A program made the position numbers and the translations under genes. From the NCBI GenBank assembly GCA_002787235.1, contig PCWG01000033.1:62438-126437 (forward strand): 64,000 nucleotides of DNA. Direction: 5' to 3'. This document shows positions 1-31,688 of this stretch, piece by piece. This DNA comes from Nitrospinae bacterium CG11_big_fil_rev_8_21_14_0_20_45_15 (GTDB lineage Bacteria; Nitrospinota; Nitrospinia; Nitrospinales; VA-1). The stretch's first letter is position 1. Every line of letters begins with the position of its first letter. The notes under the pieces were generated by a model that saw nothing but the letters and a program-made list of their open reading frames with translations, was not told the origin of the DNA and searched no databases.

Positions 1-1385
1 CAGATGACCCTGGTGACAATACCCTCTCTGAACCTCAGTATATATGCAAATATGGAGACATGTTGTTTGTTTCTGATCGAGGCAACCATCGCGTTTTAGT
101 ATGGGATCAATTTCCTGAAGAAAACGGAGAACCGGCCAGTGTTGTACTCGGGCAGGAAGATTTTGCCGATTGTCTGGAGAATAGAGGAATCACCACTACT
201 CTGGACGAAATGACATCGGGTTTGGGTGACGAGAATCTTGAAGGTTTTACCATCAGTAAAGCAGAAGAAGACACCCTTTCACAGCCAGCCGGGCTTTCTG
301 TCATCGATGGAAAATTATATGTCGTAGACAGTGGTAACCATCGTGTTTTGCGTTGGCAGGGGTTGCCCAGTGAAGATGGTGAGCCTCCGCAAATGGTCTT
401 GGGACAAGACAATTTGGAAGACAATGAAGCAAACCGTCGTGGTTTTACCGGATCGGGTTCCCTGTTTTTCCCAATGGGAATTTGTTCTGGCGATGACCAG
501 CATGTTTTTGTAGCCGACAAGGACAATCATCGCGTTTTGATTTGGAACAAGATTCCTTTTGGCGACGGTTGGAACGCTGATGTCTGTGTCGGACAAGCTG
601 GAATGGATGAGCGAGAACCCAACAAGGGCGAATTCGATAATGTTTCAGCCGATTCCATGAGTTTTCCTATGGGCGTTGCCTGGGATGCGGAAGGGGAACG
701 ATTGATTGTTGTCGATCAAGGCAACAACCGTGTTTTGATCTGGAACAGACTGCCGAGAGAAAATGGTCAACCTGCTGATGTGGTTATCGGACAAAAGGAT
801 TTTGAAAGCAGATCCGTTAATATGGGGCTGGGTGCCGAACGAGCCAGTGCCTCAAGTTTGTATTGGCCTACTGACGTAGTTTTCGGAAAAACAGGCTTGT
901 TTGTATCCGATACTGCAAATAATCGAGTGTTGTATTGGAAGGAAATCCCCACCGAAAATGGTCAACCCGCAGACAAGGTATTTGGGCAAACCAATTTTAC
1001 AGATAACAAGCCCAACCGTTTTGGTCAGGCATCCAGTTCCACACTGAACGATCCTTACGGTTTATTTCTCGAAGAAGATCTGACTCGAGAAGACCTTGGG
1101 CTCGATGAATTGGAAGATGAAGATAGGGACGACTTTGAAGGTGATTCTCAGGAAGTTGCGAGAAGAGACGATGAAGAAGAGGAAACCTTATTTCGATTGT
1201 TTATTTGTGACCGGAGCAATTCTCGAATTGTTATCTGGAGAGAGTTCCCTGACAGTGCAGGAAAAGATGAAGCAGAAGATGAGGACGGGTTGGTGATAGA
1301 CCATCCGGATACTTTATTGGGAGATGACGACGATGATGACGATTACGATCCCGATTTGATTCCTGAAGAAGTTCCCGCTGTTTGA
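1..1385 (+). CDS. NHL-repeat beta-propeller protein, 5' end truncated by window edge; Asp/Glu-rich C-terminal tail
   Basis: The frame of ORF 60..1385 stays open to position 3 (DDPGDNTLSEPQYICKYGD precedes the listed Met and fits the repeat). Repeated D-x-x-N-[HNS]-R-[VI]-L-x-W blades (DRGNHRVLVW, DSGNHRVLRW, DKDNHRVLIW, DQGNNRVLIW, DTANNRVLYW, DRSNSRIVIW). Confidence 0.85.
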   Translation, partial: DDPGDNTLSEPQYICKYGDMLFVSDRGNHRVLVWDQFPEENGEPASVVLGQEDFADCLENRGITTTLDEMTSGLGDENLEGFTISKAEEDTLSQPAGLSVIDGKLYVVDSGNHRVLRWQGLPSEDGEPPQMVLGQDNLEDNEANRRGFTGSGSLFFPMGICSGDDQHVFVADKDNHRVLIWNKIPFGDGWNADVCVGQAGMDEREPNKGEFDNVSADSMSFPMGVAWDAEGERLIVVDQGNNRVLIWNRLPRENGQPADVVIGQKDFESRSVNMGLGAERASASSLYWPTDVVFGKTGLFVSDTANNRVLYWKEIPTENGQPADKVFGQTNFTDNKPNRFGQASSSTLNDPYGLFLEEDLTREDLGLDELEDEDRDDFEGDSQEVARRDDEEEETLFRLFICDRSNSRIVIWREFPDSAGKDEAEDEDGLVIDHPDTLLGDDDDDDDYDPDLIPEEVPAV

Positions 1386-1575: not shown

Positions 1576-2148
1576 TTAAGCGTTTTCCTGAGTTGCAGAT
1601 TCATCATCTGGCGCACTACCTGAGGTTTGCCCGAATACATCGGCGATAATTTTATTGACCTCGTCATGGCCCAGAATATTGTAGACCGCATTTGCGGACT
1701 TGAAATGATTACTGGTGAATAAGCTCAGAACCTTTTTACTGGAATAACCTAGCATCATAAATTCGTGAGCATAGTTTACCGCGACGGTTCTCAGAGTCGT
1801 TTCGTCGGCGTCCTCGTCTCCTGTTGGGGGACCTGCATCCATAGAAGCTTCTTCCTGCACTTCATAGACGTAAATCAAATGCCAACCGAACTCTGTTTTT
1901 ACCGGGCCGACAACGTCGCCCTCTTCAGCTGAGAAAGCGGCAACTTCAAAGGGGCGTACCATGGAGCCTTTTCCAAACCAACCCAAATCGCCACCGCGTT
2001 TTTTGGATGGGCACTCGCTGAATTCTTCTGCGAGCTTGGAAAAATCTTCACCCTCGTCAATTTTTGCTTTCAACTCATCGGCTTTTTCTTTGGAACCCAC
2101 CAAGATATGTCTTGCTTGAACTTTTTTTGTTTTTCTTTCTTTTGACAT
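1576..2148 (-). CDS. Parvulin-type peptidyl-prolyl cis-trans isomerase (PpiC family) with an uncharacterised ~90-aa C-terminal extension
   Basis: The N-terminal 100 aa match the parvulin core (ARHILV...CPS.K.GGDLGWF..G.M...FE.AAF....G...GPV.T.FGWHLI.V). ATG at 2148. Confidence 0.85.
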   Translation of the reverse strand: MSKERKTKKVQARHILVGSKEKADELKAKIDEGEDFSKLAEEFSECPSKKRGGDLGWFGKGSMVRPFEVAAFSAEEGDVVGPVKTEFGWHLIYVYEVQEEASMDAGPPTGDEDADETTLRTVAVNYAHEFMMLGYSSKKVLSLFTSNHFKSANAVYNILGHDEVNKIIADVFGQTSGSAPDDESATQENA

Positions 2149-3037: not shown

Positions 3038-3475
3038 CTACTGTTCTTCTGTCTCAATATTTCTAACAGCTCTTACGGCGTCTTTGGTTACGTCGAGTTC
3101 TTTATGGTTCAGATTGGCATGGCCGTAGCGATAGTAAAACACGATGGCACTGCCGTGGGGTCTTTCCTCTGAAGTCCATGTTGTGAATCCTCCACCGGGA
3201 GAAAATTCTGGCGGAATGAAAATATCAAAACGGTCCATATCACGGATGCTATGACCCTCGTCGTACAAGCTCTCGGCTTCTTCCAGTGTTGGTAAACGCC
3301 AATTTCGATAACCTGCAAATTTTTTCAAATTCAGGCTGCGTGTGTAGTCCTGAGAAGTGTACCAGTTGGTCCACTTACTCGTATCTTGATACGAGTCGGT
3401 TTGTTTCCACATCAAGTTTGTTTCGTTGTCGGTAACGGTTCCATCTCCGTTGTCTCTAAAACGTTTTGTTGCCAC
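3038..3475 (-). CDS. DUF1566 / Lcl C-terminal domain protein, single domain, no signal peptide
   Basis: Motifs DNGDGTVTD, LMW, FAGYRNWRLPTLEEAESLY, TTWTSE, RAVRNI. The listed ORF starts at a TTG (3505) with no RBS. GTG at 3475 is preceded by AGGAGA plus an 8-nt spacer, so that start is preferred. Confidence 0.85.
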   Translation of the reverse strand: MATKRFRDNGDGTVTDNETNLMWKQTDSYQDTSKWTNWYTSQDYTRSLNLKKFAGYRNWRLPTLEEAESLYDEGHSIRDMDRFDIFIPPEFSPGGGFTTWTSEERPHGSAIVFYYRYGHANLNHKELDVTKDAVRAVRNIETEEQ

Positions 3476-3520
3476 GTAAACTTTCTCCTGTCTTGTTCTG
3501 CCCAAGCGGGACTATCATTT

Positions 3521-3994
3521 TCAATCAGTATCGTCATTGAGATCTCTCACGATTCGAGTGGAACCGCGCGAGGGTCGATATATATCGTCGTAAGTCATGA
3601 CACCCTTGCGATAGCCAAACCGGAGGGCTTGGATTTTATTTCTGACATCTCCCGTCCAGCATAAAAAACCAAAACCTGGCTCAAATATTGAGTAGAGATG
3701 TGCTACTTGACCTTGATGGTCTTTATTGCTTTCGGTTTTGGTGTATAGACTTTTGGCTTCGAGAGCATTTGGGATTCTCCAGTTGCCAAAACCAAGGTGC
3801 CGTTTTTGATTGAGCTCTTCGACATAGGTGCGAACTTGAATCAGATTCATCCATTTACCGGTCATCTGCCAGGTGTCTTGTTTCAGCCACATGAGATTTC
3901 TTGCGCGGTCCATGATGATGCCTTCACCGGTATCCACAAATCGGACAGCTGTTTTCACAGCGTCAATGGGTGGTGTCGTTTCTTGTTCGCTCAT
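3521..3994 (-). CDS. DUF1566 / Lcl C-terminal domain protein, single domain, no signal peptide
   Basis: DTGEGIIMD, LMWLKQD, LGFGNWRIPNALEAKSLY, CWTGD, RIVRDL. ATG at 3994. Confidence 0.85.
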   Translation of the reverse strand: MSEQETTPPIDAVKTAVRFVDTGEGIIMDRARNLMWLKQDTWQMTGKWMNLIQVRTYVEELNQKRHLGFGNWRIPNALEAKSLYTKTESNKDHQGQVAHLYSIFEPGFGFLCWTGDVRNKIQALRFGYRKGVMTYDDIYRPSRGSTRIVRDLNDDTD

Positions 3995-4027
3995 AATAGT
4001 ATATTTTTAGGCATGGCATTAAGTCCT

Positions 4028-4912
4028 TTATTTTTTAATATCTCTTATAGCTCTGACGCCGTGGCTCCGCAGTCCCATTTTATGCCATTTGTAGTCGCCG
4101 TTGTACATCTGAAAACGGATGGCCAAGGTGCGGTCGGTACGGTGCATGGTTTTTGTCCAGCATGTTTGGGCCGACCCGGCGGGAAATGCCTTCACCAAAA
4201 AAACAACATCACCGTACTTGTCTGTGATGGGGCTTGAGGGGTCGTAGATGGATTGTACTTCTTTGCGAGTTGGCATCCGCCAATCCTGATGTCCCGCAAA
4301 CCGATTGTTGTTAAGGACATGCACCCATGTTTTGGCTTCTTCCCATGAAACCCATTTGTCGAGATCTATGTAGGAATCGTCGGCTTTCCACATGACCCCT
4401 TCTTCCCGGTCGGTGACGGTCCCGTCTCCGTTGTTGACAAAACGTTCTTCCTCGCCTTCCTCTGCGACTCTGACGATATTACGTACCAGTCTGAGGGCAC
4501 TGGGGAATCCACTATTTTCTTTAGCCAGCCAGAATTCATAGTCGGAACGGAGGTCGAAACCCATTGCGGCTTTAGCTCCACGGGTTTCGCTGGTCCAGGT
4601 GGAAAACCCGCACCCTGAACTGAAGATGGGGTCGAGGTGGATTTCACATCCTTCGACGTCGGAATTGCTGGATTCAGGGTCAAACAATGTACGGGCTTCG
4701 GTAGCGGTTGGAAATCGCCAATTATTATAGCCTGCAAATTTTTGCGAGTTCTTTTCCTGAACAAATTCCTGGCACTCGTGCCAGGTCATGAGCCGACCTT
4801 TTTCCAACCAGGTATCTTCCTTGGCCCACATGAGTTTGTGTACGGGATCAGAAATCGTGCCGTCGCCATTGTCTGTATATGGAATTTCTTTATTGGTTAA
4901 TTGTTCGTTCAT
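4028..4912 (-). CDS. DUF1566 / Lcl C-terminal domain protein with two tandem domains
   Basis: Two copies of the module (DNGDGTISD...FAGYNNWRFPTATEARTLF...STWTSE...RLVRNI, then NNGDGTVTD...FAGHQDWRMPTRKEVQSIY...RAIRDI). The listed start (4990) is a TTG inside the upstream gene, so ATG at 4912 is preferred. Confidence 0.85.
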   Translation of the reverse strand: MNEQLTNKEIPYTDNGDGTISDPVHKLMWAKEDTWLEKGRLMTWHECQEFVQEKNSQKFAGYNNWRFPTATEARTLFDPESSNSDVEGCEIHLDPIFSSGCGFSTWTSETRGAKAAMGFDLRSDYEFWLAKENSGFPSALRLVRNIVRVAEEGEEERFVNNGDGTVTDREEGVMWKADDSYIDLDKWVSWEEAKTWVHVLNNNRFAGHQDWRMPTRKEVQSIYDPSSPITDKYGDVVFLVKAFPAGSAQTCWTKTMHRTDRTLAIRFQMYNGDYKWHKMGLRSHGVRAIRDIKK

Positions 4913-4938
4913 GGTCCTGGGAAATTTTGAGGTTTGAG

Positions 4939-5448
4939 TCAATTGTGTTGACGAATTTGATCGTTCTTTTTCACAGGAGCTTTCCGACAAATGCGGACGG
5001 AACCAAAACTGTATTCATCGACTGATATCAGTTTTCCTTCGGAGTAATCAAACCGGGGGCGACGGGTAGACGTGTCTCCGGTTAACCATTGGGTTTTGAA
5101 GGAATTTTCTGGAAAGCATGAGTCGATGTGGATGGTGCCACCGCCTTTACAGCTATTGGTCAGGCTGGCTTGATACAAACTGGCGGCTTCATCGTATGTG
5201 GGCAAGCGCCAATCGTCGAATCCTCCAATTTTTCGCATGTTTTTTTTATCTGCGAATTCGCGAGCTTCATGCCAGTTTAAAAATTTTCCCTTATCCTGCC
5301 AGGAATCTTTTTTCAGCCAGTATAATTTAGTTACATTGTCAAAAATGACATGAGGTCCCTTTTCTACCCAGCGTTTGGGTTTACCGTCGTCTTCTTTTTT
5401 AACAGGGAGTTGCTCTGATTCTATTTTTACGGGGTGCTGTTCTGACAT
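4939..5448 (-). CDS. DUF1566 / Lcl C-terminal domain protein (divergent), no signal peptide
   Basis: LYWLKKDSW, W.EA, GGFDDWRLPTYDEAASLY, RICRKA. ATG at 5448 preceded by GAGG. Confidence 0.8.
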   Translation of the reverse strand: MSEQHPVKIESEQLPVKKEDDGKPKRWVEKGPHVIFDNVTKLYWLKKDSWQDKGKFLNWHEAREFADKKNMRKIGGFDDWRLPTYDEAASLYQASLTNSCKGGGTIHIDSCFPENSFKTQWLTGDTSTRRPRFDYSEGKLISVDEYSFGSVRICRKAPVKKNDQIRQHN

Positions 5449-5474
5449 TTTGATACCTCGTTATTTATGGTGTT

Positions 5475-5711
5475 TCAATCGCCGGTGTAGCCGATGTTCA
5501 CATTGCCTTCATCTACATTGACTATCACGGGGACTATGTATTTCCCGTCGGTGTATTCGAGAAGCGTTTTCATACCATGTTCATTGTTCTCAACGTTAAT
5601 ATAAATAAAAGAGCGATGTTGTTTTTTAAAATCGGCCACCGCCTTTTGCGTGTGAGGACAATCATTTTTACCAAATATCATAAAATGCGACATAGTTGTT
5701 TCGTGACCCAT
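5475..5711 (-). CDS. Glutaredoxin-like / thioredoxin-fold small protein with a single-Cys CPHT motif
   Basis: The 78-aa layout FGK.DCPHTQKA...(beta-alpha-beta)...VP.I is the Grx/NrdH-like arrangement. The second active-site Cys is replaced by Thr (TGT CCT CAC ACG read directly). Confidence 0.65.
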   Translation of the reverse strand: MGHETTMSHFMIFGKNDCPHTQKAVADFKKQHRSFIYINVENNEHGMKTLLEYTDGKYIVPVIVNVDEGNVNIGYTGD

Positions 5712-5732
5712 TGTTAAGACATTAGAAGTTTT

Positions 5733-6359
5733 CTAACGTGCAAATTTTTTGGAGTCCGTTCTCCATTCGGGTTCCCACTCGTCTCGTACCACGTCGCGTA
5801 CCAGGCGACAATGAGAATATTCGTTATCTTTGGCTTCCCAGACCCAGTTACCAGTCACATAACTGAACTTCATGGCATATTGAGGGTAATCGGGCTTTTC
5901 ATCATAAGTCCAGGTGTTGTGTCCACCGTTGGATTCAAATTCAGAATCAATATGAATTTCGGCACCATCTTTGTCATGGTTGGTTCGAACAAATGAGAAA
6001 AGTCCTTTTGCTTCATCGGAACCGCAGAGTCTCCAGTCGTCAAACCCGGCATAGTTCTCTTCATTCATTTTTTCGCAATAATCGTGGGCTTCGAACCATG
6101 TTATACCGTATTTATATTCTGCAAAAGAGTCTTTTTTAATCCACTGCAGAGATCTTTTGGTTTCCGTTACTGTGCCGTCGCCGTTGTCAACAAAGGTAGG
6201 AAGAGCTTCTTCTTCAGCTTCTTCTTCATCTTCTTCCTCTTCGCCCCATTCGTCTTCGCCAATAAATTCTTCATCGATGACTTCTTCTTCAATATCGTCT
6301 TCAGCGTCTTCGAAATCTTCAATCAGTTCTTCATTTTCAGTTTCTTCTGATTCGCTCAT
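5733..6359 (-). CDS. DUF1566 / Lcl C-terminal domain protein with a ~55-aa poly-acidic N-terminus
   Basis: The N-terminus is almost entirely E/D. It is followed by DNGDGTVTE, LQWIKKD, YAGFDDWRLCGSDEAKGLF, NTWTYDE, RLVRDV. Confidence 0.85.
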   Translation of the reverse strand: MSESEETENEELIEDFEDAEDDIEEEVIDEEFIGEDEWGEEEEDEEEAEEEALPTFVDNGDGTVTETKRSLQWIKKDSFAEYKYGITWFEAHDYCEKMNEENYAGFDDWRLCGSDEAKGLFSFVRTNHDKDGAEIHIDSEFESNGGHNTWTYDEKPDYPQYAMKFSYVTGNWVWEAKDNEYSHCRLVRDVVRDEWEPEWRTDSKKFAR

Positions 6360-6426
6360 TTTTTTTTCCGCTAGCAGGGGTGATGTGTTTGAGATTTTAA
6401 TTTTTCTGATTCAATTCAAAGCTTGA

Positions 6427-6861
6427 TTACAAATCGCGAACAAGCCGTGCTGATGTGCCGGTTGTGGACACACTTTGATCCACGCAAATTTCTTTTCCTG
6501 AGGGAAAGTAGCTTTTCCATGCGTAAGAATCGTATCTCGTTTCAGAGGACCATACGCTGGTTTCTCCACCGGATTGGTAATTGGATACGGAGCGCTTGGT
6601 TTTCTCTGGAAGGTTTAAGAAAAGTTTTCTGTAAAGCTCTTTGTGTTTCATGAAAATGCGCAGTTCACTTTTGGTTGGCAAACGCCAATCATTGTGTCCC
6701 AAATAGTTCTGCTCGTTGCATGCAAGACGGAAGCTGTTCGCTTCATCCCAGTTTAGCCATTTCCCCAATAATTGTCTGGAGTCTTTAAGGCTCCACTGCA
6801 AATCGTTCTCAATATCGTCTACGGTTCCATCTTTGTTAACTTTGAAAATTTCGTCTGTCAT
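6427..6861 (-). CDS. DUF1566 / Lcl C-terminal domain protein, single domain
   Basis: NKDGTVDD, LQWSLKD, W.EA, YLGHNDWRLPTKSELRIF, SVWSSET, RLVRDL. ATG at 6861. Confidence 0.85.
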   Translation of the reverse strand: MTDEIFKVNKDGTVDDIENDLQWSLKDSRQLLGKWLNWDEANSFRLACNEQNYLGHNDWRLPTKSELRIFMKHKELYRKLFLNLPEKTKRSVSNYQSGGETSVWSSETRYDSYAWKSYFPSGKEICVDQSVSTTGTSARLVRDL

Positions 6862-6963
6862 AAGGTCAGTTTCTTTAGCCCTAAAAGTTGGATTCCATGA
6901 TTTGGATGAAATTACACGGGGCAGGGATTTAAGTAATTACATAAACAAAATTTTTTATAACGA

Positions 6964-7458
6964 TCAACGCCATCCGCCGCCACGCGTGATGACGTCTTTA
7001 GGCTGTGGAATTGTCTTCTTTTTGTATTTTGTTGTATCCAGGACGCCCCGAACAAAGCGTACGCTATCGTTGAGATTGTCTTCAGTTTCCTTATGTCCCC
7101 CGGTGCCATTCCCAAAAGAAAAGCAATAGGCTGTCACATTGCCGCGGGCATGAGAGGTCCAGGTATTGTAGCCACAGCCTGGCGAAAAAGCTGAATCAAG
7201 ATGAACAACCATATCATACTTATCGAGGATTTCAGCGCGATCAAGATAGATACTGTAGGCCTCGTGTTTGTCTGGAAGTCGCCAGTCAGAATAACCTGCG
7301 AAAGATTCTTCATTTGTTTTTTTTAAAAGTTTCAATGCTTGTGGATATGTGATGAATTTTTTAAGTCTTAAAAAAGAGTCTTCTTGCATCCACATCAATG
7401 AGGTCAGGGAATCCGTTATTGTTCCATCCTTGTTGTCTATAAATCTTCCCGAAGTCAT
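6964..7458 (-). CDS. DUF1566 / Lcl C-terminal domain protein, single domain (first gene of the array)
   Basis: NKDGTITD, LMWMQED, FAGYSDWRLPDKHEAYSIY, NTWTSH, RFVRGV. The internal ATG at 7458 is preceded by GCAGGAGCACAG (good RBS). The listed start 7530 would add 24 non-homologous residues. Confidence 0.85.
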   Translation of the reverse strand: MTSGRFIDNKDGTITDSLTSLMWMQEDSFLRLKKFITYPQALKLLKKTNEESFAGYSDWRLPDKHEAYSIYLDRAEILDKYDMVVHLDSAFSPGCGYNTWTSHARGNVTAYCFSFGNGTGGHKETEDNLNDSVRFVRGVLDTTKYKKKTIPQPKDVITRGGGWR

Positions 7459-7575
7459 CTGTGCTCCTGCGTAAAATAAAAATCCCCTCGATTGGAACCG
7501 CAGTTCCTGCAAGGGATTCGTTTCAATCATTTGAGTCGGTTATTATCTCATATCTGGCGGGCAAAAGAAAAGGGC

Positions 7576-7608
7576 AAAAAAAAACCGGAAGGCCTTTCGG
7601 CCTCCCGG
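7576..7608 (-). terminator. Rho-independent terminator of the upstream secreted-protein gene; insulates the DUF1566 array
   Basis: Minus strand reads CCGGGAGGCC-GAAA-GGCCTTCCGG followed by a run of nine T (10-bp stem with one G-U pair, GAAA loop). Confidence 0.9.
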
Positions 7609-7625
7609 TCTTGTAAAAATTCTTC

Positions 7626-8114
7626 TTATCGATTGAGTTGGCTTGTTTGGCCAGCAGTCTGTGAGAAGAGACCGCGCTCGGTTCCTTCAGGTTGACCCAT
7701 ACCAGGCTCAATGTAGGTGCCAGGTTTAACATGATCCATGTGGTAATGGGTTTGGTAGCTTTTTCCAGAACCTTGATCGAGTTTCCAGTCATGACGATCG
7801 TTTCGTTGTCGCTGACAGTTAATCGAAATTGCTCCAGGACCTTCGTTTTTAAATGTTGAATTGCGTTGCAGAGCTCTTGCGAGGTAGTCCCCGGGAGCTA
7901 TAGTTGCTGTTTCGTCTGCGCCCCAACCGTAATCTTGAGGACCTAAATTAAATACGATCGTGGTTTCTTCGCTCTCGCTCAGGTTGTCCACTTTCCAAGA
8001 TGCATTCTCACAAGTTGAGGTGCCGCCTGGTTGCACTACGTTTACGTTGGCATTGGCCGTTGCTACGAACGCCAATACTGCTGATACCGCAAAAATGCCG
8101 ACCATCTTTTTCAT
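7626..8114 (-). CDS. Small secreted hypothetical protein (162 aa)
   Basis: N-terminal signal peptide MKKMVGIFAVSAVLAFVATANA. A strong terminator follows immediately. No recognisable domain. Confidence 0.7.
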   Translation of the reverse strand: MKKMVGIFAVSAVLAFVATANANVNVVQPGGTSTCENASWKVDNLSESEETTIVFNLGPQDYGWGADETATIAPGDYLARALQRNSTFKNEGPGAISINCQRQRNDRHDWKLDQGSGKSYQTHYHMDHVKPGTYIEPGMGQPEGTERGLFSQTAGQTSQLNR

Positions 8115-8459
8115 GTGTTGCTCCCCCTTTAACGGAAAGTTAAAAATTGGAACTATAAAAAGCTTAACCTCTAAACCTATAATTCCTTTTGATGGTTACC
8201 GCTAGTCCTAAAATACCAAAAAAATAGAAACAAGTCTAACCTTGAAAATAACTCTGTAAGGATTAATCCAGAACGCCTGATCCTATAATTATCCTTCTGG
8301 AATTTGAGAGAAAAATACCAAATTCATCAATAGAAGTCAAGATTTAAATCTTATGTTTAGATTGCTTTAAATAACTGTTTGATAAATAAATATATATCAT
8401 GTCTTTTCTTTGTGGCTCTGATTTGTCTTTTATTTATGGATCAAATTTATATTCTTGGA

Positions 8460-8855
8460 TCAGACACTGAACTTCAAGGAGGTCAGGCTGGCCAGACTCA
8501 GAGAGTTACGTAATTCTTTTTCGCCTTCTTCCGAGATGTTGTTGATAACCAGTTGTATGCTCCTCAGGTTCTTTAAGTTTTCGGCGGTCGCCAAATAGTG
8601 GGCTCCTTTATCGCTGATGTTGTTGGCGGCGAGATTCAAGGTGCGTAACTTGGTGAAGTGAGGTGAGTCTATGATGGCTTTGACTCCGTCGTCGCCGATA
8701 TCGTTTTGGGACAGGTCGAGTGCCCGAAGGTTGCTCAATTCTTCCCTTTGGGCCAATTCTTTCGCGCCGACCTCTCTAATATACTGGGCCTTCAAGTTGA
8801 GGACTTGTCCGTCTGAGCTCAATCTGTCTCTTAGCAAATCATCCATTCTTGACAT
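8460..8855 (-). CDS. Leucine-rich repeat protein, ribonuclease-inhibitor (RNI)-like repeats
   Basis: ~28-aa repeats: L.ALDLSQNDIGDDGVKAI, L.TLNLAANNISDKGAHYL, L.SIQLVINNISEEGEKEL. Confidence 0.75.
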   Translation of the reverse strand: MSRMDDLLRDRLSSDGQVLNLKAQYIREVGAKELAQREELSNLRALDLSQNDIGDDGVKAIIDSPHFTKLRTLNLAANNISDKGAHYLATAENLKNLRSIQLVINNISEEGEKELRNSLSLASLTSLKFSV

Positions 8856-9066: not shown

Positions 9067-9876
9067 TCAACCCAAACCTTCAATTTTTTTAGCCATAAAA
9101 CCGTACTCATCGTAACTTTCCCAGCCTTCCTGAAGCATTTTCTTTGTGTATTTGATCATTAAATTGGCTTGGGAATGGTTGGGGTTGATCTCGACTGTTT
9201 TCTTCAATAATTTCTGTGCTTTTTTGACGTCTTTGATTTCATCTCCATAATTGTCGATCTGTCTGGATTTATCGATCAAATCGGATGCCCATTTGTAATT
9301 CAAGTCGGCTATCTGTAAGGGAGCATTTTGGGAAACGTGTTCGACGATTTCTTCGTCGGCCTTCAATTTGTCTATCAATTCGAGGGCTAGCTCAAATTCT
9401 CGTATCGGGAGTCGGTAATCATCGTCGGTGACGTCTACGATGGATTCTCCGGCTTTGTGCGCGGAATGAAGGCCAACGGAACTGATGATTACTTTGGACT
9501 GGATGCCTGACATCAATTCGCTAAACAGGACTTCGCCCATGGCAAAATGGATAATGGATGCAAATTCTTGCTCGGTATCGTATTGCAGAGCTAATTCGAA
9601 TTGGGTTTTGGCACTTTGATGTTCACCCAAGTCCATATAAGCTTCGCCCAGATTGTAATAATTGAGACAGTTGTCGGGGTCTTCTTCGATTTGTTCGAGA
9701 AAGGTTTCGATCTGGGCTTCCAGGTCAAAGTCTTCCTCTTCCTCGTCTCCATCATCGACGCCATCATTCTCTTCGTCTTCTTCGGGCACGGCTTCGAGCT
9801 CTGATGTGGATTCGTCGGAAGGCGGAGTTACCTCGTTTTCATTTTCTTCTTCAGCGTCTTTATTTTTTTGATCCAT
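9067..9876 (-). CDS. Acidic hypothetical protein with TPR-like helical repeats
   Basis: D/E-rich N-terminus, then YYNLGEAYMDLGEHQSAKTQFELALQYD (TPR-like). ATG at 9876 is preceded by GGAG plus 7 nt; the listed start 9903 is an alternative. Overlaps the upstream gene by 17 nt. Confidence 0.6.
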   Translation of the reverse strand: MDQKNKDAEEENENEVTPPSDESTSELEAVPEEDEENDGVDDGDEEEEDFDLEAQIETFLEQIEEDPDNCLNYYNLGEAYMDLGEHQSAKTQFELALQYDTEQEFASIIHFAMGEVLFSELMSGIQSKVIISSVGLHSAHKAGESIVDVTDDDYRLPIREFELALELIDKLKADEEIVEHVSQNAPLQIADLNYKWASDLIDKSRQIDNYGDEIKDVKKAQKLLKKTVEINPNHSQANLMIKYTKKMLQEGWESYDEYGFMAKKIEGLG

Positions 9877-10510
9877 GGGTGTTCTCCGCCGCTTTTGCGG
9901 CATCTGTATTGCGTACGGGGCGAATCACGGTCAGGGAAAGTCCTGGCCCGCCTTTCATGCTCAAATAGGCTTTGCCTCGAATATAATTGAAGCCCCAAGC
10001 CATTTCTTTTTTGGTTTCGCTGGACCAAAAACAACAACTGGTGTAGCCAAAGATGGGATCCATGTGGATATTATTTTCTGTCCAATAATAATTCCATGGA
10101 ATACTTTTGTTTTCTTCGTAAAGACTTTCAAGCTCTGTGCGAGTGGGTAGACGCCAATCGTTGTGTCCTGCAAATTGATCCTGGTTCAACTGCTTCAGGA
10201 AGTCTTGCGCCATGTCCCAGTTGATCCATTTCTTCAATTCTTGATAGGAGTCGGTCTTTTTCCAAATGAGATTGGTTTTTTTGTCGAGAACCGTGCCATC
10301 GCCAATATCCTGATATCGCGTATCACCTGAGGGTGTCAGCTCTTCAAGGGGCTTGGTCATGGAAAGAATTTGCCCTTCGAAAAGTGGATCACCCGAGGGT
10401 GTGCTCGTATTTTCTCCTGCTAATGCCGTTGCTGCATATATCATCAGCATCAAGACAATTGGCAGGGAAAGAAGGGTTGCCTTGAATCGACTTTTTTTTA
10501 TAAGTGACAT
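9860..10510 (-). CDS. DUF1566 / Lcl C-terminal domain protein with N-terminal signal peptide (secreted paralog)
   Basis: Signal peptide KATLLSLPIVLMLMIYAATALA, then DIGDGTVLD, LIWKKTD, FAGHNDWRLPTRTELESLY, CCFWSSET, RPVRNT. Confidence 0.85.
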   Translation of the reverse strand: MSLIKKSRFKATLLSLPIVLMLMIYAATALAGENTSTPSGDPLFEGQILSMTKPLEELTPSGDTRYQDIGDGTVLDKKTNLIWKKTDSYQELKKWINWDMAQDFLKQLNQDQFAGHNDWRLPTRTELESLYEENKSIPWNYYWTENNIHMDPIFGYTSCCFWSSETKKEMAWGFNYIRGKAYLSMKGGPGLSLTVIRPVRNTDAAKAAENTHGSKK

Positions 10511-10534
10511 TCGTGTATTGCATTCATTCTGCGG

Positions 10535-11539
10535 TTAATCGTCTTGAGGAGCCCAGTCGGGTTCCCAGGAAAGGCAAATTCCTGTGGCATTTTTAAATTG
10601 CCCGGGTTCTTTGCCGTTGACACCCCATTTTGAAACAAAGTTCAATTCGGGGTCAAATTTTTGAATTCGATTGTTAAGGGTATCCACTACAAAAACGAAT
10701 CCATAGGGGTCTTCGGCAATTCCCATGGGGCAATTGAATTGTCCGTCACGTTTGCCGATTTCTCCTACAACTGTAAGAGAGTGTCCTTCACGATCGAATA
10801 ATTGCAGGCGATTCTGGCTTTTTTCAGAAACGAGGATGGATCCGTCTTTGCGAACGGCAATTCCTACGGGGAAGTTCAGGCGTCCTGTTTCAAAGCCGTA
10901 TTCTCCGAATTTGCTTTGGTATTGTCCGTCTTCGTTGAAGATCTGAATTCTCTGGTTGTCGCGGTCAGCAACGTAGATGTTGCCTTCTTTATCGAGGGCT
11001 ACACCGGCGGGGAATTTCATAAATCCATCAAAATTGCCAGCGACGCCGAATCCCATGAGGAATTCTCCCTCGTCGTCGTAACGTTTGATGAGATGATTGT
11101 TGGTGTCAACAACGAGAATGGTTCCCATGGCTTCTGCGATGATGCCTTCGGGCCAATAAAATTTTTCCTGTCCCCAACCTTCTTTGCCAAACTCCAATAT
11201 GAAATTGCCATCGGGATCAAATTTTTGAATTCGATGGCATCCCGTATCGGCAACCCAGATGTTTCCTTCGTGATCGACGGTAACCGCCGATGGGGTTTTA
11301 AACTCACCGGGACTGTAAGGGGCACGGGTTCCACCCGAGCGACCAAATGCCATGAGAAATTTCCCATTTCCGTCGAATTTCTGGATGCGGTCATTTCCTG
11401 AATCGGCCACCCAAACATACAGTTTGGAATGGTCTATTTTGAGTTCTTCGGGGCTTGCTTCGGGCAGGGTTTCTCCGAATTGTGCTACGTCCAAGCCGAC
11501 GTCAGACTCATCAACGAGTTCGGTATTTTCCTCAGTCAT
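10535..11539 (-). CDS. NHL-repeat six-bladed beta-propeller protein, no signal peptide
   Basis: Six repeats: DSGNDRIQKFD, DTGCHRIQKFD, DTNNHLIKRYD, DRDNQRIQIFN, EKSQNRLQLFD, DTLNNRIQKFD, each followed by G.F...FG..G...G.F..P.G. Confidence 0.9.
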   Translation of the reverse strand: MTEENTELVDESDVGLDVAQFGETLPEASPEELKIDHSKLYVWVADSGNDRIQKFDGNGKFLMAFGRSGGTRAPYSPGEFKTPSAVTVDHEGNIWVADTGCHRIQKFDPDGNFILEFGKEGWGQEKFYWPEGIIAEAMGTILVVDTNNHLIKRYDDEGEFLMGFGVAGNFDGFMKFPAGVALDKEGNIYVADRDNQRIQIFNEDGQYQSKFGEYGFETGRLNFPVGIAVRKDGSILVSEKSQNRLQLFDREGHSLTVVGEIGKRDGQFNCPMGIAEDPYGFVFVVDTLNNRIQKFDPELNFVSKWGVNGKEPGQFKNATGICLSWEPDWAPQDD

Positions 11540-11769
11540 ATATATCCATTTGAAATTGGGTAGATGATAGAAATATCCTAAGGGGATTTTGAGTCACGGT
11601 GTGATTCACCTTAAGAAAACTGGCCTTGATTGTTTTTAAGGACCGCTCTTTGCCAAAAGTAAAATACAGGTAGAGAGAGCGGGTTCTTTTAAAAATAGTT
11701 TTCTGAAATCTTTATATCTTATTTTAAAGAAACTATAGCCGGAATTTCTGAAATCGCAGAGATTTTTTT

Positions 11770-11801
11770 TCTGAAAAAGAAAAGGCCCCGCTCGGGGCCT
11801 T
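11770..11801 (-). terminator. Rho-independent terminator
   Basis: Minus strand reads AAGGCCCC-GAGC-GGGGCCTT followed by TTCTTTTTC. Confidence 0.85.
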
Positions 11802-11933
11802 GGGCTTCGGTTCACCAGAGCTCCACATCCCCGTCGCAGAGCCTTTCGGGATAAGCTGTTCCCCTAGCGGTTGCTTTCTTTCCCTGAGAACCGACCCTAA
11901 TAGGGCGAGCTCTCTAGTGAAAGGTATTCATTT

Positions 11934-12551
11934 TTATTTGATAAAAAATCCTTTGACGTCAAGAACCTGATATTCAAAGTCGCAGGCCTTTTGCAAATCT
12001 TCGAGTCGTTCATTCCAGTTGGTTTTGAAAAGTTCCAGACTTTCAGATTTTGGTTTTTTCTTCATCAACTCGACTTCTCTGAAAAGAGGCTTGACCAGAT
12101 TTTTATGAATCATTTGTACCGAATTGCGCAATTTGACAACACAATCTTTGGTTACCAGTTCTCTGGTGACACCATCGACTTTTTCGAGCAGTCGGAGGAA
12201 AGATTGGATCGTAGCCAATTGGGACATATAACTTTCTGACAAGCGGTGATCGTATTTCATCCCACAATCGATGTAGGCGGTCATCAGCCACATGCCGACA
12301 TGGTGGTCAAATTTCACAGAAAGGGTGATGAGTTTTTGCAGATAGTCGACTTCTCGTAAGTCTTCGTCTTCTTCTTCACCTTCTGCAAGTTCTTTGGCTG
12401 CTTTCTCTTTTTCTTTTTGAAGTTCGGCTTTAATGCTTTCCAACTCGCTCAAATCAGCGAGCGAATCTGCGGGGGTCTCTTCTGCCTTCTCCTGAGTTTC
12501 CTCCCCGGTGGCCTGTCCTTCTTCTTCTTTTTCTGTATCCTGTTCGCTCAA
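11934..12551 (-). CDS. Hypothetical protein with acidic coiled-coil N-terminus
   Basis: 205-aa ORF with ATG start. E/K-rich first 70 aa, no recognisable domain. Confidence 0.6.
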   Translation of the reverse strand: MSEQDTEKEEEGQATGEETQEKAEETPADSLADLSELESIKAELQKEKEKAAKELAEGEEEDEDLREVDYLQKLITLSVKFDHHVGMWLMTAYIDCGMKYDHRLSESYMSQLATIQSFLRLLEKVDGVTRELVTKDCVVKLRNSVQMIHKNLVKPLFREVELMKKKPKSESLELFKTNWNERLEDLQKACDFEYQVLDVKGFFIK

Positions 12552-12675
12552 AGGGAAATCTCCTCTAAAGACCTTATTAAATAATAACCGCCATATTTTG
12601 GTTTGATCGTAATTATATATAGAATGGCGGAGTATAAATTATATTGCAACGGCCTGTCAAGTTTTGCCGAAGACC

Positions 12676-13548
12676 TTATTTGCAGGTTTGCGATTCGAGG
12701 TAATCTATAACAGCACCATCATTGTTGGTTCTTATGGTCTCGTTGGCCTGAGCTTTCACCTCAGGCAGGGCGTTGCCAACGGCGACGGAATGTCCTGCTA
12801 CTTGAAACATATCCAAATCGTTCAGATAGTCTCCAAAAACAGTCACTTGTGATAAGGGAATGTTCAACAGCTTTGCCAGTTTCACAACAGCGTGCCCTTT
12901 GGTAGCTTTTTTATTATAGGTTTGTAACCAGTAATAACCGTCATTGTAGAGATCTTTAGCAAAATACATTGCGAGTTGTTCGGGATATTTTTCTTTCAAT
13001 GCAAGGTAAATGGGTTCCAGAGTGGAGAATCGATCGATCAAAAGAAATCCAGATATAGACTCTTTTTCTGTGAAGGTGAATTGTTGGGTCTGGCAGAGGC
13101 GTCCATCTCCATTCAAGCTGTCCAGATAGGCTTGTGCTCCGGGATTGCTTGCGCTCCGGTAGTAAAGCAAATGTTGATCGGCTACGGTATAGATAAATGG
13201 GTCGAGCTGGATGGGCTCGACTATTTTCAACATATCTTTAACGATGTCAGCACTGATAAATTCGGATCCGCCAAGGTCTTTCCCGGTTGTCAGGTCGCTT
13301 AGAAAGACTCCGTTGAATAGAATAACTGGAAGTTTCAGTTTGAGTCCTTTTAACAAAGGGAGTGCAGACTCCTGGCTTCTTGCTGTGGCGATGGTGAATT
13401 GCAGACCACGGTCGATCATGTGATTGAGACGCTGAAGGGAAGAGGGGGATAATTTCCCCTGGTCGTCAAGTAACGTTCCATCGAGATCAGAAATGAATAA
13501 TCTGTCTTTTGATAGTGTATGGTAGTTTTGAGCTGTATTCTGGATCAT
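12676..13548 (-). CDS. HAD-superfamily hydrolase, Cof-type (subfamily IIB) phosphatase
   Basis: FISDLDGTLL (motif I), TIATAR (motif II), a cap region, GDYLNDLDMF (motif IV). Confidence 0.85.
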   Translation of the reverse strand: MIQNTAQNYHTLSKDRLFISDLDGTLLDDQGKLSPSSLQRLNHMIDRGLQFTIATARSQESALPLLKGLKLKLPVILFNGVFLSDLTTGKDLGGSEFISADIVKDMLKIVEPIQLDPFIYTVADQHLLYYRSASNPGAQAYLDSLNGDGRLCQTQQFTFTEKESISGFLLIDRFSTLEPIYLALKEKYPEQLAMYFAKDLYNDGYYWLQTYNKKATKGHAVVKLAKLLNIPLSQVTVFGDYLNDLDMFQVAGHSVAVGNALPEVKAQANETIRTNNDGAVIDYLESQTCK

Positions 13549-15342: not shown

Positions 15343-16524
15343 TCAGTCCGCGTGTTTTCTTAAAAAGGTTGGGATGTCGAAGTTGACAGCCGAAGCAGAG
15401 TATTCTTCAGGATTGTCTTCCCGGATAGCGTTTGCAAGGCTCTTCAAGTGCTTGTAAGGAGACGTATGTTCCTTCGCAGGCTGGGGAGTCTTGTTGTTTT
15501 CCATAGAGATTGCAGATTTTACGGACTCGGGGTTTGCGACCGGTATCTGTTCTTTTGATGACAGTGAATCGAACCCTGTGGCAATGACGGTCACCCGGAT
15601 TTGTCCGTCCATCGTCTCGTCGATCACCGATCCAAAAATGATATGAGCGTCTTCGTGTGCGCTGTTTTGTATCAGCATTGAAGCCTCGTTGACCTCAAGC
15701 AAGCTCATGTCCTCCCCACCTGTGATATTGATGAGGATGCCACGCGCACCTTCCACCGTTGCTTCATCCAGTAAGGGGCTGGAGATGGCTTTTTGGGCCG
15801 CTTCGATCGCCCGGTTTTCTCCCGCCGCAGTTCCACTTCCCATCAAGGCTTTGCCCATATCGCACATGATGGTTTTCACATCTGCAAAATCGAGGTTGAT
15901 GAGGCCTGGAATAACGATCAAATCGGAAATACTGCACACTGCTTGTTTCAGGACATCATCTACAATGCCAAAGGCACCCGTAAGAGAAGTTTGTTTGCCG
16001 ACAAAACTGAGCAATTTTTGATTGGGGATGACGATCAAGGTGTCGACGGCTTTTTCCAACTCCTTGATTCCTTCTTCAGCCTGACGAATTCTACGTTTGC
16101 CTTCAAACAAAAAAGGTTTTGTAACAACTCCAACCGTTAAGGCACCCGATTCTTTCGCGATTCGCGCGATGATTGGCGCACCCCCGGTTCCTGTGCCGCC
16201 GCCCATGCCAGCGGTGATGAATACCATGTCCGCTCCTTCAAGAGCTTCCCGGATCTGGTCTTCGCTTTCAAGTGCCGCACGTTCGCCAATTTCAGGATTG
16301 GAACCGGCTCCCAGACCTCGGGTCAGTTCACAGCCTACCTGTATCTTGCCAGGGCATTTAGAAGCTTCCAGCGATTGGATGTCCGTGTTTGCTACCATGA
16401 ACTCTACACCGCGTATCTGGCTTCGGACCATGGAGTTGACAGCATTGGTGCCGCCACCGCCAACGCCGATGACCTTGATGCTGGCGGAGTACAGGTTTTC
16501 TGATTCAAATTCTATTAATGACAT
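15343..16524 (-). CDS. ftsZ: Cell division protein FtsZ
   Basis: [33 protein letters not shown] tubulin signature. Confidence 0.98.
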
Positions 16525-16544
16525 ATTTTACCCTCCCAGGTTGT

Positions 16545-17777
16545 TTAAAAAAAGTCTTCAGCCCAATCCTTCATACGACTGAAAATCTTATCGAATAGAT
16601 GACGTCCTTTTAGTTCTCTGATGGCACCGCTTTTGAAAGACCGTTGACCGTATTGCAAAAGCCCGGTACTGGTGGCATACATCGGGCTGTTGACAACGTC
16701 GATGAGGCCTCCAAGGTGCATGGGGGATCCGATGCGCACGGGGAGTTGAAAAACCTCCTCCGCAAGATCAGCCATTCCCTTCATATTTGCGGCACCTCCG
16801 GTCAAAACGACTCCTGATGAGATGAGGTCGCGATAACCGGAATTACTGACTTCGTTGTTCATGATTTCAAACATCTCGCGTGCGCGCAGTTCGATGATTT
16901 CACTCAAAATCTGGCGTGATATTCTCCTTGGTTCGCGTCCACCGACGCTGGGAACCTCAATCATTTCATCCTCACCGACTTGCGACGAAAGAGCGCATCC
17001 GTACTTGTGCTTCACCTTTTCGGCTTCTTCATTAGGCGTTCTCAAACCGATGGCGATGTCGTTGGTCATTTGCGACCCTGCGATGGTCAAGACGGAGGTG
17101 TGTTTGATTGAGCCTTGATAGAAAATCGCCAGATCAGACGTTCCACCGCCGATATCGATCAACAAGGCACCGAGTTCTTTTTCGTCCGCAGACAAAACCG
17201 ATTCGCTCGATGCGAGTTGTTCGAGAACGATATCCTGAACTTCCAGACCTGCCTTGTTGACGCAACGGACAATGTTTTGGGCAGACGTTACGGCGGCGGT
17301 CACAATATGCACCTTTGCCTCAAGACGCACTCCCGACATACCCAACGGAGTTTTAATGCCGTCCTGATCGTCCACAATAAATTCTTGCGGGAGTACGTGG
17401 ATGACCTCTCGATCGAGTGGAATAGCGATGGCCTTGGCCGCTTCGATCACTCGATCAATGTCCTTCTGGTGGACTTCTTTTCCCTTGACCGCAATGATCC
17501 CGTGACTGTTCAAACTGTTGATGTGACCGCCTGCGATGCCAACGAAAACAGAATCGATTTCACAACCCGCCATCAATTCCGCCTCTTCCACGGCACTCTT
17601 GATGGATTCGACAGTTGCGTCGATATTCACCACGACACCCTTTCGCAGACCGCGAGACGGGTATTGTCCGAGACCAATGATGTCAATTTCGCCGTGGGCT
17701 CCCATCTCGCCGATGATGCACACGATTTTGGTAGTACCAATGTCGAGACCGACCAGATATTGTTCATGTTTGGCCAT
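16545..17777 (-). CDS. ftsA: Cell division protein FtsA
   Basis: Actin-like ATPase motifs ([17 protein letters not shown]). Position between ftsQ and ftsZ. Confidence 0.97.
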
Positions 17778-17794
17778 GCATTTTTTCCTTTAAA

Positions 17795-18682
17795 TTAGGC
17801 TTTGCCTGCCGTTTTTGCCAAGCCTTGTTTCATTTTTACAATCACGCGGTCTTCATATGACAGATCAAATAAAGCCGCATTTTTTTTATCATTTTCCATT
17901 GCGTCGAGAACGACCAGAAATTTTTGTATGCCTTCGGAGAGATGGCCAAGATCGGCGATCAGGTGTAGCTCCGTATCACGAGTGATAAATTGAATGCGTT
18001 TTTCCCCGGTAAATTCAGCGTTGACGATTGGGTTGTTTTTGAAAAAGGGCAATTGATTGAAATAATTCATTGTTTGTAATCCCAGAATCATTTCATCAGT
18101 GGCTATCGAATTCCCCAATTGAGCTTTGACAGAACGGTTGCCGGATACCATAGGCAAATCTTTATAAATTGGAGAATCGGCTTCCAGCAAGACTCCAAAA
18201 TTATCCATCACATAAACTCGGTCTAACTGAATACGCGCAAAAGGTGTTCGTTGTTTGATGTCGAAACGAATGGTATTGGGGAATGCTCTGGCCGCCGAAA
18301 CGCTAAGAGCCCAGGGACGTTCTGCCAATCGATTTGCAATTTCTTTTAGATCCAGAATGAAAATATTTTTCCCTTTGATGGGGCCCACTTGTTTGAGCAG
18401 TTCTGCATCACTGACCTTGTCCAGCCCCTGAAAATGAACGTTCTGAACTGAAAAATAGGGCGATTCCGTCAGGAAAAGATAGCTGTAATATAGAGATCCT
18501 GCAATGACTGCAGTTATCAAAGTTTTCTTAAAGCAACTCTTCAGGAAATGAGTTTTGTTTTTCCACGCAAGGCGGTCATGGCTGGACTGTTTTTCTCCAG
18601 ACTTTTTCACCAGCTTGCGAGGGGTGCTTAATTTTCCCAGAGTCGCTGTCGCGGGATGATTTTCAAACAGGGCAAGGTTCAT
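17795..18682 (-). CDS. ftsQ: Cell division protein FtsQ (POTRA domain)
   Basis: Single TM followed by a POTRA-like region (VQNVHFQGLDKVSDAELL). ATGA overlap with ddl. Synteny. Confidence 0.9.
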   Translation of the reverse strand: MNLALFENHPATATLGKLSTPRKLVKKSGEKQSSHDRLAWKNKTHFLKSCFKKTLITAVIAGSLYYSYLFLTESPYFSVQNVHFQGLDKVSDAELLKQVGPIKGKNIFILDLKEIANRLAERPWALSVSAARAFPNTIRFDIKQRTPFARIQLDRVYVMDNFGVLLEADSPIYKDLPMVSGNRSVKAQLGNSIATDEMILGLQTMNYFNQLPFFKNNPIVNAEFTGEKRIQFITRDTELHLIADLGHLSEGIQKFLVVLDAMENDKKNAALFDLSYEDRVIVKMKQGLAKTAGKA

Positions 18683-19605: not shown

Positions 19606-19741
19606 CAACGAAAAACTCCCGTGCAAATTGAATACAGGTCCGCAACCAGCCTCAGGTCTGCAGGCTGGTGGCAAGGGAGGGGGGCCCTTGTATGCGGACT
19701 TATAATTGAAAAAGGTATCAATACATATTGAGTCGTCATCG

Positions 19742-20665: not shown

Positions 20666-20790
20666 AGTTTTGCTCTGATAAAGTTTGCGTCCCAGAACGA
20701 CTATTTCTGCGCCCAAAGAAGTGGGTCGGGTCACTTTGGATAAAGCTCCGCTGGGGGTCAAATAAATTAATTTTCGTTTCCAAGGTTCGC

Positions 20791-22209: not shown

Positions 22210-22239
22210 GACAGCTCATTTTTCTTTGATACCTGGTTT

Positions 22240-23349: not shown

Positions 23350-23360
23350 CTCTTGAATAA

Positions 23361-24473: not shown

Positions 24474-24525
24474 TGGATTCTTCTTCCTCCCGCAGTGATG
24501 TGCATTATTGGTTGTGAGTCCATTT

Positions 24526-25860: not shown

Positions 25861-25865
25861 TATTT

Positions 25866-26966: not shown

Positions 26967-26968
26967 GA

Positions 26969-31682: not shown

Positions 31683-31688
31683 GGGATT

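Follow-up and report, generated by a model that had tools for sequence, protein, structure and literature searches.

We analysed a window of 64,000 nucleotides from Nitrospinae bacterium CG11_big_fil_rev_8_21_14_0_20_45_15 (contig PCWG01000033.1, positions 62,438 to 126,437), in which a tandem array of genes at 3038-7458 encodes domains of the Lcl_C family, formerly DUF1566. Together with a secreted-looking paralog nearby, the array comprises nine non-redundant Lcl_C domains under purifying selection; it is ancient, fixed and present throughout the Nitrospinaceae. The reading that we favour, with a probability of about 0.45, is that these genes form an ancient Nitrospinaceae operon for cytoplasmic, non-enzymatic Lcl_C binding modules, which would have fixed, distinct specificities and most likely act together. 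The Nitrospinaceae are the ocean's main nitrite oxidisers, and much of their lineage-specific gene content is without a known role. Nearly all known occurrences of the Lcl_C-type fold are in extracellular adhesins, phage fibres and hypervariable receptors.

Seven genes encode eight Lcl_C domains

That the array holds seven genes and eight DUF1566 domains had been claimed in an initial annotation of the window, and this is correct, far beyond chance. The seven open reading frames (ORFs), all on the minus strand and at positions agreeing with that annotation, score 46.2-134.9 bits against Pfam PF07603 (Lcl_C), and every one passes its gathering threshold of 34.9 bits; the single-domain genes reach 46-72 bits, and 4028-4912 is covered by two matched stretches. 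A custom profile was built from the window's nine domains and run on every stop-to-stop frame of the 64 kb. It retrieved the seven array genes together with an eighth paralog gene at 9860-10510, and no other frame. We named the array genes D7 to D1 in transcription order and the extra paralog D8sp. The Lcl_C genes of the window are as follows (aa, amino acids; dN/dS, ratio of nonsynonymous to synonymous substitution rates):

6964-7458, minus strand: D7, 164 aa, one Lcl_C domain, Pfam 62.6 bits; first gene of the unit
6427-6861, minus strand: D6, 144 aa, a minimal single Lcl_C domain, Pfam 63.1 bits; dN/dS 0.054
5733-6359, minus strand: D5, 208 aa, a poly-acidic N-terminal tail of ~55 aa and then one Lcl_C domain, 60 bits; dN/dS 0.078
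4939-5448, minus strand: D4, 169 aa, one Lcl_C domain and a basic C-terminal tail, Pfam 49.4 bits
4028-4912, minus strand: D3, 294 aa, two Lcl_C domains, Pfam 134.9 bits
3521-3994, minus strand: D2, 157 aa, one Lcl_C domain, Pfam 46.2 bits
3038-3475, minus strand: D1, 145 aa, one Lcl_C domain, Pfam 71.7 bits; GTG start, zero Cys
9860-10510, minus strand: D8sp, eighth Lcl_C paralog gene, signal-peptide-like N-terminus, Pfam 82 bits

AGGAG precedes both the ATG of D7 and the GTG of D1 at 3475. Beyond the common domain, several paralogs carry conserved appendages of their own: D5 its acidic, Trp-containing N-terminal tail, D7 a C-terminal tail of 26-27 residues that is kept in orthologs, and D4 its basic C-terminal tail. 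The poly-Glu/Asp tail described earlier for D5 (window 6200-6359) is present and conserved; in orthologs it is 45-55 aa long, consists of 44-60% Asp/Glu and bears a conserved Trp motif, (E/D)EW.G(E/K)(D/E)EWG. The internal duplication reported for D3 also holds, and the duplication or fusion appears to be old, because the two halves are just 28% identical to each other. D8sp lies 2.4 kb upstream of the array as a gene of its own and stands outside the leaderless set. Its nearest window paralog is D1, at 43% identity, and sequence comparison suggests that the leaderless array and this secreted copy share ancestry.

Fixed gene order, strict orthology and purifying selection

The exact D3 protein is encoded on 21 metagenome contigs, and the array DNA is 100% identical to the window on the six independent metagenome contigs that were compared. 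Relatives of D3 were found in 36 genomes at 58-88% identity. With one exception, a metagenome-assembled genome (MAG) labelled Nitrospirae, these genomes carry the label Nitrospinota, Nitrospinales, Nitrospinaceae or Nitrospina. At the protein level, D3 orthologs occur in N. gracilis 3/211 (NITGR_360077, annotated as hypothetical), N. watsonii, Candidatus (Ca.) Nitrohelix vancouverensis, Ca. Nitronauta litoralis and Ca. Nitromaritima, and databases label the array proteins "DUF1566 domain-containing" or "hypothetical". Where genomes offered enough flanking DNA, which was the case for ~30 Nitrospinaceae species, cultured N. gracilis and N. watsonii among them, the order of 16 genes is identical: ac205-NHL-D8sp-TPR-LRR-sec162-D7-D6-D5-Grx-D4-D3-D2-D1-unk247-parvulin, with a glutaredoxin-like gene (Grx) inside the array and two linked genes, unk247 and a parvulin gene, downstream of it. 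Every complete locus has eight Lcl_C genes and nine domains, D8sp included. The initial annotation had allowed that the array might prove widespread with an already assigned function. It is widespread within the Nitrospinaceae, and no function is assigned to it.

The copies had been described as strongly diverged, and pairwise identities of 24-43% between window paralogs bear this out. Orthologs average 63-75% identity within the paralog groups, between which identity falls to 28-42%, and the nearest neighbour lies in the sequence's own paralog group for 285 of 285 domain sequences. We calculated dN/dS pairwise by the Nei-Gojobori method for pairs with dS of 0.05-1.0. The values for D1-D7 are 0.05-0.14, the same range as for the parvulin (0.065) and the NHL protein (0.06) of the locus; D7, D4 and D2 have mean ortholog identities of 69%, 73% and 63% and dN/dS of 0.10, 0.12 and 0.14, respectively. 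The longest nucleotide repeat between paralogs measures 45 nt at 60-80% identity and lies at the WRLP-coding site, and neither the repeat search nor the orthology grouping gave any sign of gene conversion between paralogs. Since each copy persists as a 1:1 ortholog, its place in the order fixed and purifying selection acting on it, the copies are non-redundant.

These data bear on the suggestion, made in the initial annotation together with a call for dN/dS and gene-conversion estimates, that the array is a diversified recognition set. A static set agrees with the residues that are conserved specifically within each paralog; fast diversification does not agree with the estimates, and the set is ancient and fixed. 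An actively diversifying repertoire, be it targets of a diversity-generating retroelement, gene-conversion cassettes or a recognition set against phages or mobile elements, is effectively refuted. DUF1566 is an established class of variable proteins of such retroelements (PMC5758913), and tandem paralogs with variable C-terminal halves give a superficial resemblance. However, there is no reverse transcriptase or mobile-element gene among the genes of the window, long repeats and hypervariability are missing, and the low dN/dS, the strict 1:1 orthology and the identical DNA on six contigs all speak against this account. A defence system and a phage origin were likewise rejected: PADLOC-DB yielded 0 families for all ten proteins of the operon, tblastn gave no match in 50,697 phage genomes, and the setting is core-chromosomal, near the cell-division (dcw) gene cluster.

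Reduced forms of the locus occur in two divergent Nitrospinales genomes, which have only D3, D2, D1, unk247 and the parvulin gene there, with unrelated flanks:

CP070799.1 (L032), 10010-13440: D4-D7 absent at the locus
JBHHYO010000052.1 (L039, a Nitrospinales MAG), 4839-8202: D4-D7 absent at the locus; order D2-D3-D1

Because both genomes keep these five genes together amid unrelated flanks, the arrangement argues for a functional core made of D3, D2, D1, unk247 and the parvulin. On a wider scale, the nine-domain profile matched 31,125 cluster representatives (E <= 0.001). The top-scoring matches are giant multi-repeat proteins, and the short leaderless proteins among the best 150 of the 31,125 representatives are Nitrospinota orthologs only.

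The array proteins lack hydrophobic leaders

The initial annotation saw no signal peptide or lipobox on the seven proteins, and none of D1-D7 shows a hydrophobic N-terminus in the window or, by the same measure, in the 27-35 orthologs examined per gene. The measure was the highest Kyte-Doolittle value of any 12-residue stretch in the first 60 residues of the longest possible ORFs, and "leaderless", meaning without a Sec, Tat or lipoprotein leader, is used here at the level of hydrophobicity alone. For D1-D7 the maximum stays at or below 0.8 even in these longest ORFs, in contrast to 2.8 for D8sp and 2.7 for the secreted-looking neighbour at 7626-8114. Among the orthologs of each array gene, 0 or 1 exceeded the cut-off, that one being an artefactual upstream extension; hydrophobic N-termini were found in 23/23 orthologs of D8sp and 24/24 of 7626-8114. 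Mis-called starts that would hide signal peptides were ruled out with maximal and stop-to-stop ORFs in the window and at ~30 orthologous loci. A search with D6 returned 133 homolog clusters, of which the 120 listed are all orthologs, at 59-94% identity. The near-complete homologs among the matches listed (query coverage >90%) are 134-171 aa long, mostly 145-147, and therefore have no room for a signal peptide. At the other end, D1-D7 stop 2-27 residues past the domain, and a type IX secretion C-terminal domain would need a longer stretch than that.

From the missing export signals and the cytoplasmic type of the co-operonic genes (the glutaredoxin-like gene, the leaderless parvulin and the SEC-C-motif protein family of unk247), we infer that the array proteins most likely stay in the cytoplasm, in a role that has not been described. 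The alternative is leaderless export and action outside the cytoplasm, through a flagellar or other type III-like system, a type I system, vesicles or an unknown route, and we judge it unlikely. It would fit a family that is overwhelmingly extracellular, the secreted paralog D8sp and the secreted-looking 7626-8114 next door, and the disordered N-terminal extensions of several members. Most unk247 orthologs also carry a SEC-C motif, through which SecA binds SecB and the ribosome; if export were the case, this protein and the parvulin may be a dedicated chaperone or targeting pair for an unknown pathway. However, no secretion-system gene lies in or beside the unit in ~30 genomes, purifying selection maintains all eight domains in the window lineage although the SEC-C motif has been lost there, and a glutaredoxin-family protein is embedded in the array; the short C-termini speak against the type IX route. 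Were such export true, it would indicate a new secretion route.

A conserved terminator and candidate promoter precede the unit

Two elements lie upstream of D7:

7581-7612, minus strand: strong intrinsic terminator of the upstream gene 7626-8114; 14-bp stem containing 8 G-C pairs, then a T9 run
7542-7547, minus strand: candidate -10 box GATAAT with TGA in front, extended-10-like; putative promoter element

The terminator delimits the transcription unit of the array at its 5' end. A TAnAAT box stands directly after its T-run in nearly all of 27 aligned Nitrospinaceae upstream regions, and hairpin, T-run and box are conserved almost base for base across the 27 genomes. The intergenic gaps from D7 to the parvulin gene (ten genes) are 21-107 nt, and a weak terminator-like site follows the parvulin gene at 1541-1525. 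We take this stretch to be a probable single operon in the order D7-D6-D5-Grx-like-D4-D3-D2-D1-unk247-parvulin. Neither Rfam families nor tRNA genes were found in the 64 kb, and control by a riboswitch or other RNA is not supported.

Three accessory genes share the probable operon

The glutaredoxin-like gene and the two linked downstream genes, like D8sp, had been missed by the initial annotation:

5475-5711, minus strand: glutaredoxin-like protein with a CPHT motif, 78 aa, embedded between D5 and D4; Pfam Glutaredoxin 30 bits
2187-2930, minus strand: unk247, a Nitrospinota-only protein, always downstream of D1; dN/dS 0.054
1576-2148, minus strand: parvulin-type peptidyl-prolyl isomerase, leaderless, with a C-terminal extension of ~90 aa; last gene of the unit

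The glutaredoxin-like gene occupies the same position in 31 genomes. Its product matches NCBIfam NF041114 ('UXX-star selenoprotein family 1') over profile positions 2-66 of 70 at 72.4 bits, marginally above the cutoff of 72, and its N-terminal motif CPHT is the Cys form of U-x-x-T. At 5466-5711 the window reads GYTGD and then TGA-AAC-ACC-TAA, mimicking U-x-x-stop. A selenoprotein reading is unlikely, for the pattern is present in the window but TGA-x-x-stop is found in 0 of 31 orthologs, 19 of which end in TAA or TAG; the window TGA is probably an ordinary stop and the resemblance coincidental.

For unk247 we found 94 homologs, every named one from Nitrospinota and most with PF02810 (SEC-C). 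Most orthologs combine an N-terminal C-x4-C-x-C-x-H cluster (CTNPFCDCNH) with a C-terminal SEC-C metal-binding motif. Both are lost in the window lineage and its closest relatives, and one subclade has lost the N-terminal cluster alone. A function could not be read from the fold: the confident AlphaFold2 model (predicted local distance difference test, pLDDT, 83) had no meaningful fold match in a Foldseek search of the PDB, where the matches were chains of major histocompatibility complex class II at a template modelling score (TM-score) of ~0.2 and a root-mean-square deviation of ~15 Å. The parvulin gene is syntenic in 30 genomes; its product scores 91.8 bits against Pfam Rotamase_3, and the closest small-protein NCBIfam match is PpiC.

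The domains share the fold of Lcl and differ in their C-terminal halves

A C-type-lectin-like fold had been expected for the array from its motifs, and the structural search agrees. We take the fold from D3, the sole Lcl_C protein modelled (AlphaFold2, pLDDT 84, predicted TM-score (pTM) 0.71). Its top PDB match in Foldseek is 8q4e_A, the C-terminal domain of Lcl, with probability 1.00, a target-normalised TM-score of 0.55 and 129 aligned columns. Weaker matches comprise the C-type-lectin-like or FGE-like folds of PorK, EgtB, SenA, CarF, Bd2740 and TvpA, and there is a fold-level resemblance to phage DUF1566 proteins. By sequence, a paralog profile retrieved 8q4e only from the PDB (E = 0.0012), and a D3 ortholog profile retrieved no match there.

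Nine residues are invariant across the nine window domains, among them W59, R60 and E66 (D1 numbering). These three align to YSDWRLPTRFE of 8q4e, where the Arg and Glu form the Arg338-Glu344 salt bridge of Lcl. The window domains contain none of the calcium-sugar motifs EPN, QPD and WND; no Cys is conserved across paralogs, and conserved disulfides as in canonical C-type lectins are missing. The alignment has 13 universal columns and a further 21 that are conserved within each paralog yet different among paralogs. Most of the 21 fall in the C-terminal half of the domain, which is 79-85% conserved within orthogroups. C-type lectins bind ligand through this half, and the same part is diversified in retroelement targets of the DUF1566 type. 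The C-terminal domain of Lcl is a stable, obligate trimer with R342 and F343 as interface residues (PMC11162425). The two equivalent positions, which directly precede the invariant Glu, vary from paralog to paralog but are conserved within each one, and the pTM of the D3 model hints at a defined packing of its two domains.

The structural matches also raise the question of catalysis. Enzymes or enzyme subunits akin to the catalytic FGE-sulfatase/EgtB branch of this fold superfamily, with the glutaredoxin-like protein as redox partner, would be in keeping with the EgtB, SenA, CarF and PorK matches that Foldseek ranks below Lcl, with the I-H-x-D and G-C-G motifs of several paralogs and with the redox protein embedded in the array. 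We consider this improbable. No domain matches Pfam FGE-sulfatase (PF03781) at E <= 0.01, and the FGE-like structural matches are weak (probability <= 0.85, with 0.44 for EgtB; TM-scores 0.18-0.26). The nine invariant residues are those that have been described as the DUF1566 fold core; D1, D3b and D6 lack the His, Asp and Cys candidates; and the domain, at ~130 aa, is about half the size of an FGE domain.

A proposed cooperating set of cytoplasmic binding modules

We propose that one transcript would arise from the conserved promoter directly after the conserved terminator, and that its eight Lcl_C domains, C-type-lectin-like in fold, would be non-enzymatic binding modules of the cytoplasm. 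Each paralog would present its own fixed surface, mainly through the C-terminal half, and could thereby have a different partner or a different place in an assembly. The paralogs would cooperate, either as subunits of one hetero-oligomeric assembly or as adaptors that form a fixed panel. The parvulin, probably made from the same transcript, plausibly helps to fold the invariant W-R-x-P motif, which is speculation on our part, and unk247 and the glutaredoxin-like protein would serve as accessory factors. A hetero-oligomer is attractive because the Lcl domain is an obligate trimer, because the interface-equivalent positions vary between paralogs while being conserved within each, and because fixed, ancient paralog sets are typical of hetero-oligomeric particles.

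Several points weigh against this proposal. The location is argued from absent signals, gauged by hydrophobicity; characterised Lcl_C/DUF1566 proteins are almost all extracellular, and 106 of the 148 retrieved top profile matches have a hydrophobic N-terminus. The count of eight cytoplasmic domains does not fit Lcl-like trimers. By residue counts the net charges are near neutral or acidic (D+E about equal to or above K+R in most paralogs), so the polyanion-binding mode of Lcl may not be directly transferable. D4-D7 and the glutaredoxin-like gene appear to be dispensable, or unlinked, in some lineages, and synteny within one family can partly reflect general collinearity. The literature search gave no experiment or expression data on the array genes, no paper linking DUF1566 with Nitrospina or naming the N. 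gracilis locus tags, and, as the initial annotation had said, no described function.

Another account keeps the proteins in the cytoplasm and drops the common complex: the paralogs would be independent adaptors or regulators with separate targets, and the operon would reflect co-regulation and an ancestry of tandem duplication. Conserved surface residues and appendages are specific to each paralog, and genomes with D1-D3 only are easier to explain if the members act separately. Against it stand the exact order and number in ~30 species, the tight spacing behind one conserved promoter and the obligate oligomerisation of the sole solved family member, and we regard it as rather unlikely. A bolder version of the proposal is similarly doubtful. 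It holds that the locus encodes an unrecognised, Nitrospinota-specific intracellular machine, which might be an eight-subunit lectin-like hetero-oligomer or scaffold, or else the cargo of a new leaderless export route with the SEC-C-motif protein and the parvulin as dedicated factors.

The locus would matter for several reasons. Features that usually mark an important cellular function are seen in this operon: it is near-universal in the Nitrospinaceae genomes examined, including those of cultured strains, its purifying selection is comparable to that on the parvulin, and it lies a few kilobases from the dcw cluster. A complex of these proteins, or their binding to an intracellular polymer, would extend the known roles of the domain family. 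In either case the locus would serve as a lineage marker, and in N. gracilis and N. watsonii it would offer a tractable target, with NITGR_360077 and the genes beside it as an example. In its hetero-oligomer form, the bolder version would describe the first cytoplasmic multi-subunit assembly of the Lcl_C/C-type-lectin-like fold.

Genomic surroundings

Leaderless interaction-repeat proteins flank the array:

60-1385, plus strand
8460-8855, minus strand
9067-9903, minus strand
10535-11539, minus strand
11934-12551, minus strand

They include two NHL propellers, an RNI-type leucine-rich repeat protein and a tetratricopeptide repeat protein, and several have long poly-acidic tails. These repeat types are usual in secreted or eukaryote-like proteins; here they are syntenic across the Nitrospinaceae, and their genes are absent beside the minimal D1-D3 module of the two divergent genomes.

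Elsewhere the window is ordinary core chromosome, with genes for cell division (dcw), cytochrome c maturation (ccm), histidine biosynthesis and flagellin. The dcw cluster is complete, running from mraZ to ftsZ; it and the ccm cluster occupy 15343-33413 (minus strand) and 33936-40627 (plus strand). The Lcl_C unit shares the dcw strand and lies ~8 kb past the ftsZ end of that cluster. The window's second paralog array consists of five tandem flagellin genes at 49977-55209 (plus strand), each encoding 282-285 aa with Flagellin_N and Flagellin_C domains, at pairwise identities of 52-85%.

Comparison with known systems

The closest relative by structure is the C-terminal domain of Legionella pneumophila Lcl (PDB 8Q4E), which belongs to the same Pfam family. 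Lcl and the array share the motifs dWRLPTxxE and W-[TS]-S-E...R-x-V-R, including the Arg-Glu salt-bridge pair, and neither has conserved disulfides or calcium-sugar motifs. Lcl is a type II-secreted surface adhesin with a collagen-like stalk, and it binds glycosaminoglycans through a strongly basic face. In contrast, the array proteins have no leader and no collagen repeats (Pfam sees only Lcl_C), their net charge by residue counts is near neutral or acidic, and the locus spreads eight separate paralogous domains over one operon.

The DUF1566 targets of diversity-generating retroelements, such as Legionella LdtA (category 'd'/CLec2, Wu et al. 2018), resemble the array in being short, with little beyond one domain, and in concentrating the differences between copies in the C-terminal part of the domain. 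The array differs from them in having no reverse transcriptase, no pair of template and variable repeats and no hypervariability, and its proteins are leaderless, whereas LdtA is a surface lipoprotein. Expansion to many copies per genome is also seen in the DUF1566 lipoprotein and adhesin families of Leptospira and Bacteroidota (Lsa25, for example) and in giant multi-repeat Lcl_C proteins; many public Lcl_C proteins have multiple stretches, up to 18 matched ones per chain. The proteins of this group are extracellular-matrix adhesins with signal peptides or lipoboxes, whereas the array consists of separate leaderless genes and scores 22-23 bits against the NCBIfam Lsa25 model, for which the cutoff is 260. 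Phage tail-fibre and collagen-like proteins with a distal DUF1566 domain have the same fold as the array, from which they are set apart by the lack of any sequence-level match in the phage genomes searched and of a phage context.

The hetero-oligomers Lsm1-7, CCT1-8 and proteasome alpha1-7, unrelated in fold and kingdom, offer an analogy only: like the array, each comprises a set number of paralogs of a small domain that diverged long ago and persist as 1:1 orthologs under purifying selection. The array proteins are bona fide Lcl_C proteins without the hallmarks of the characterised members, namely secretion, a collagen stalk, a lipobox or retroelement hypervariability. A known extracellular binding domain is employed, in one phylum, as a fixed and apparently cytoplasmic operon of multiple paralogs, which is unexpected for this fold.

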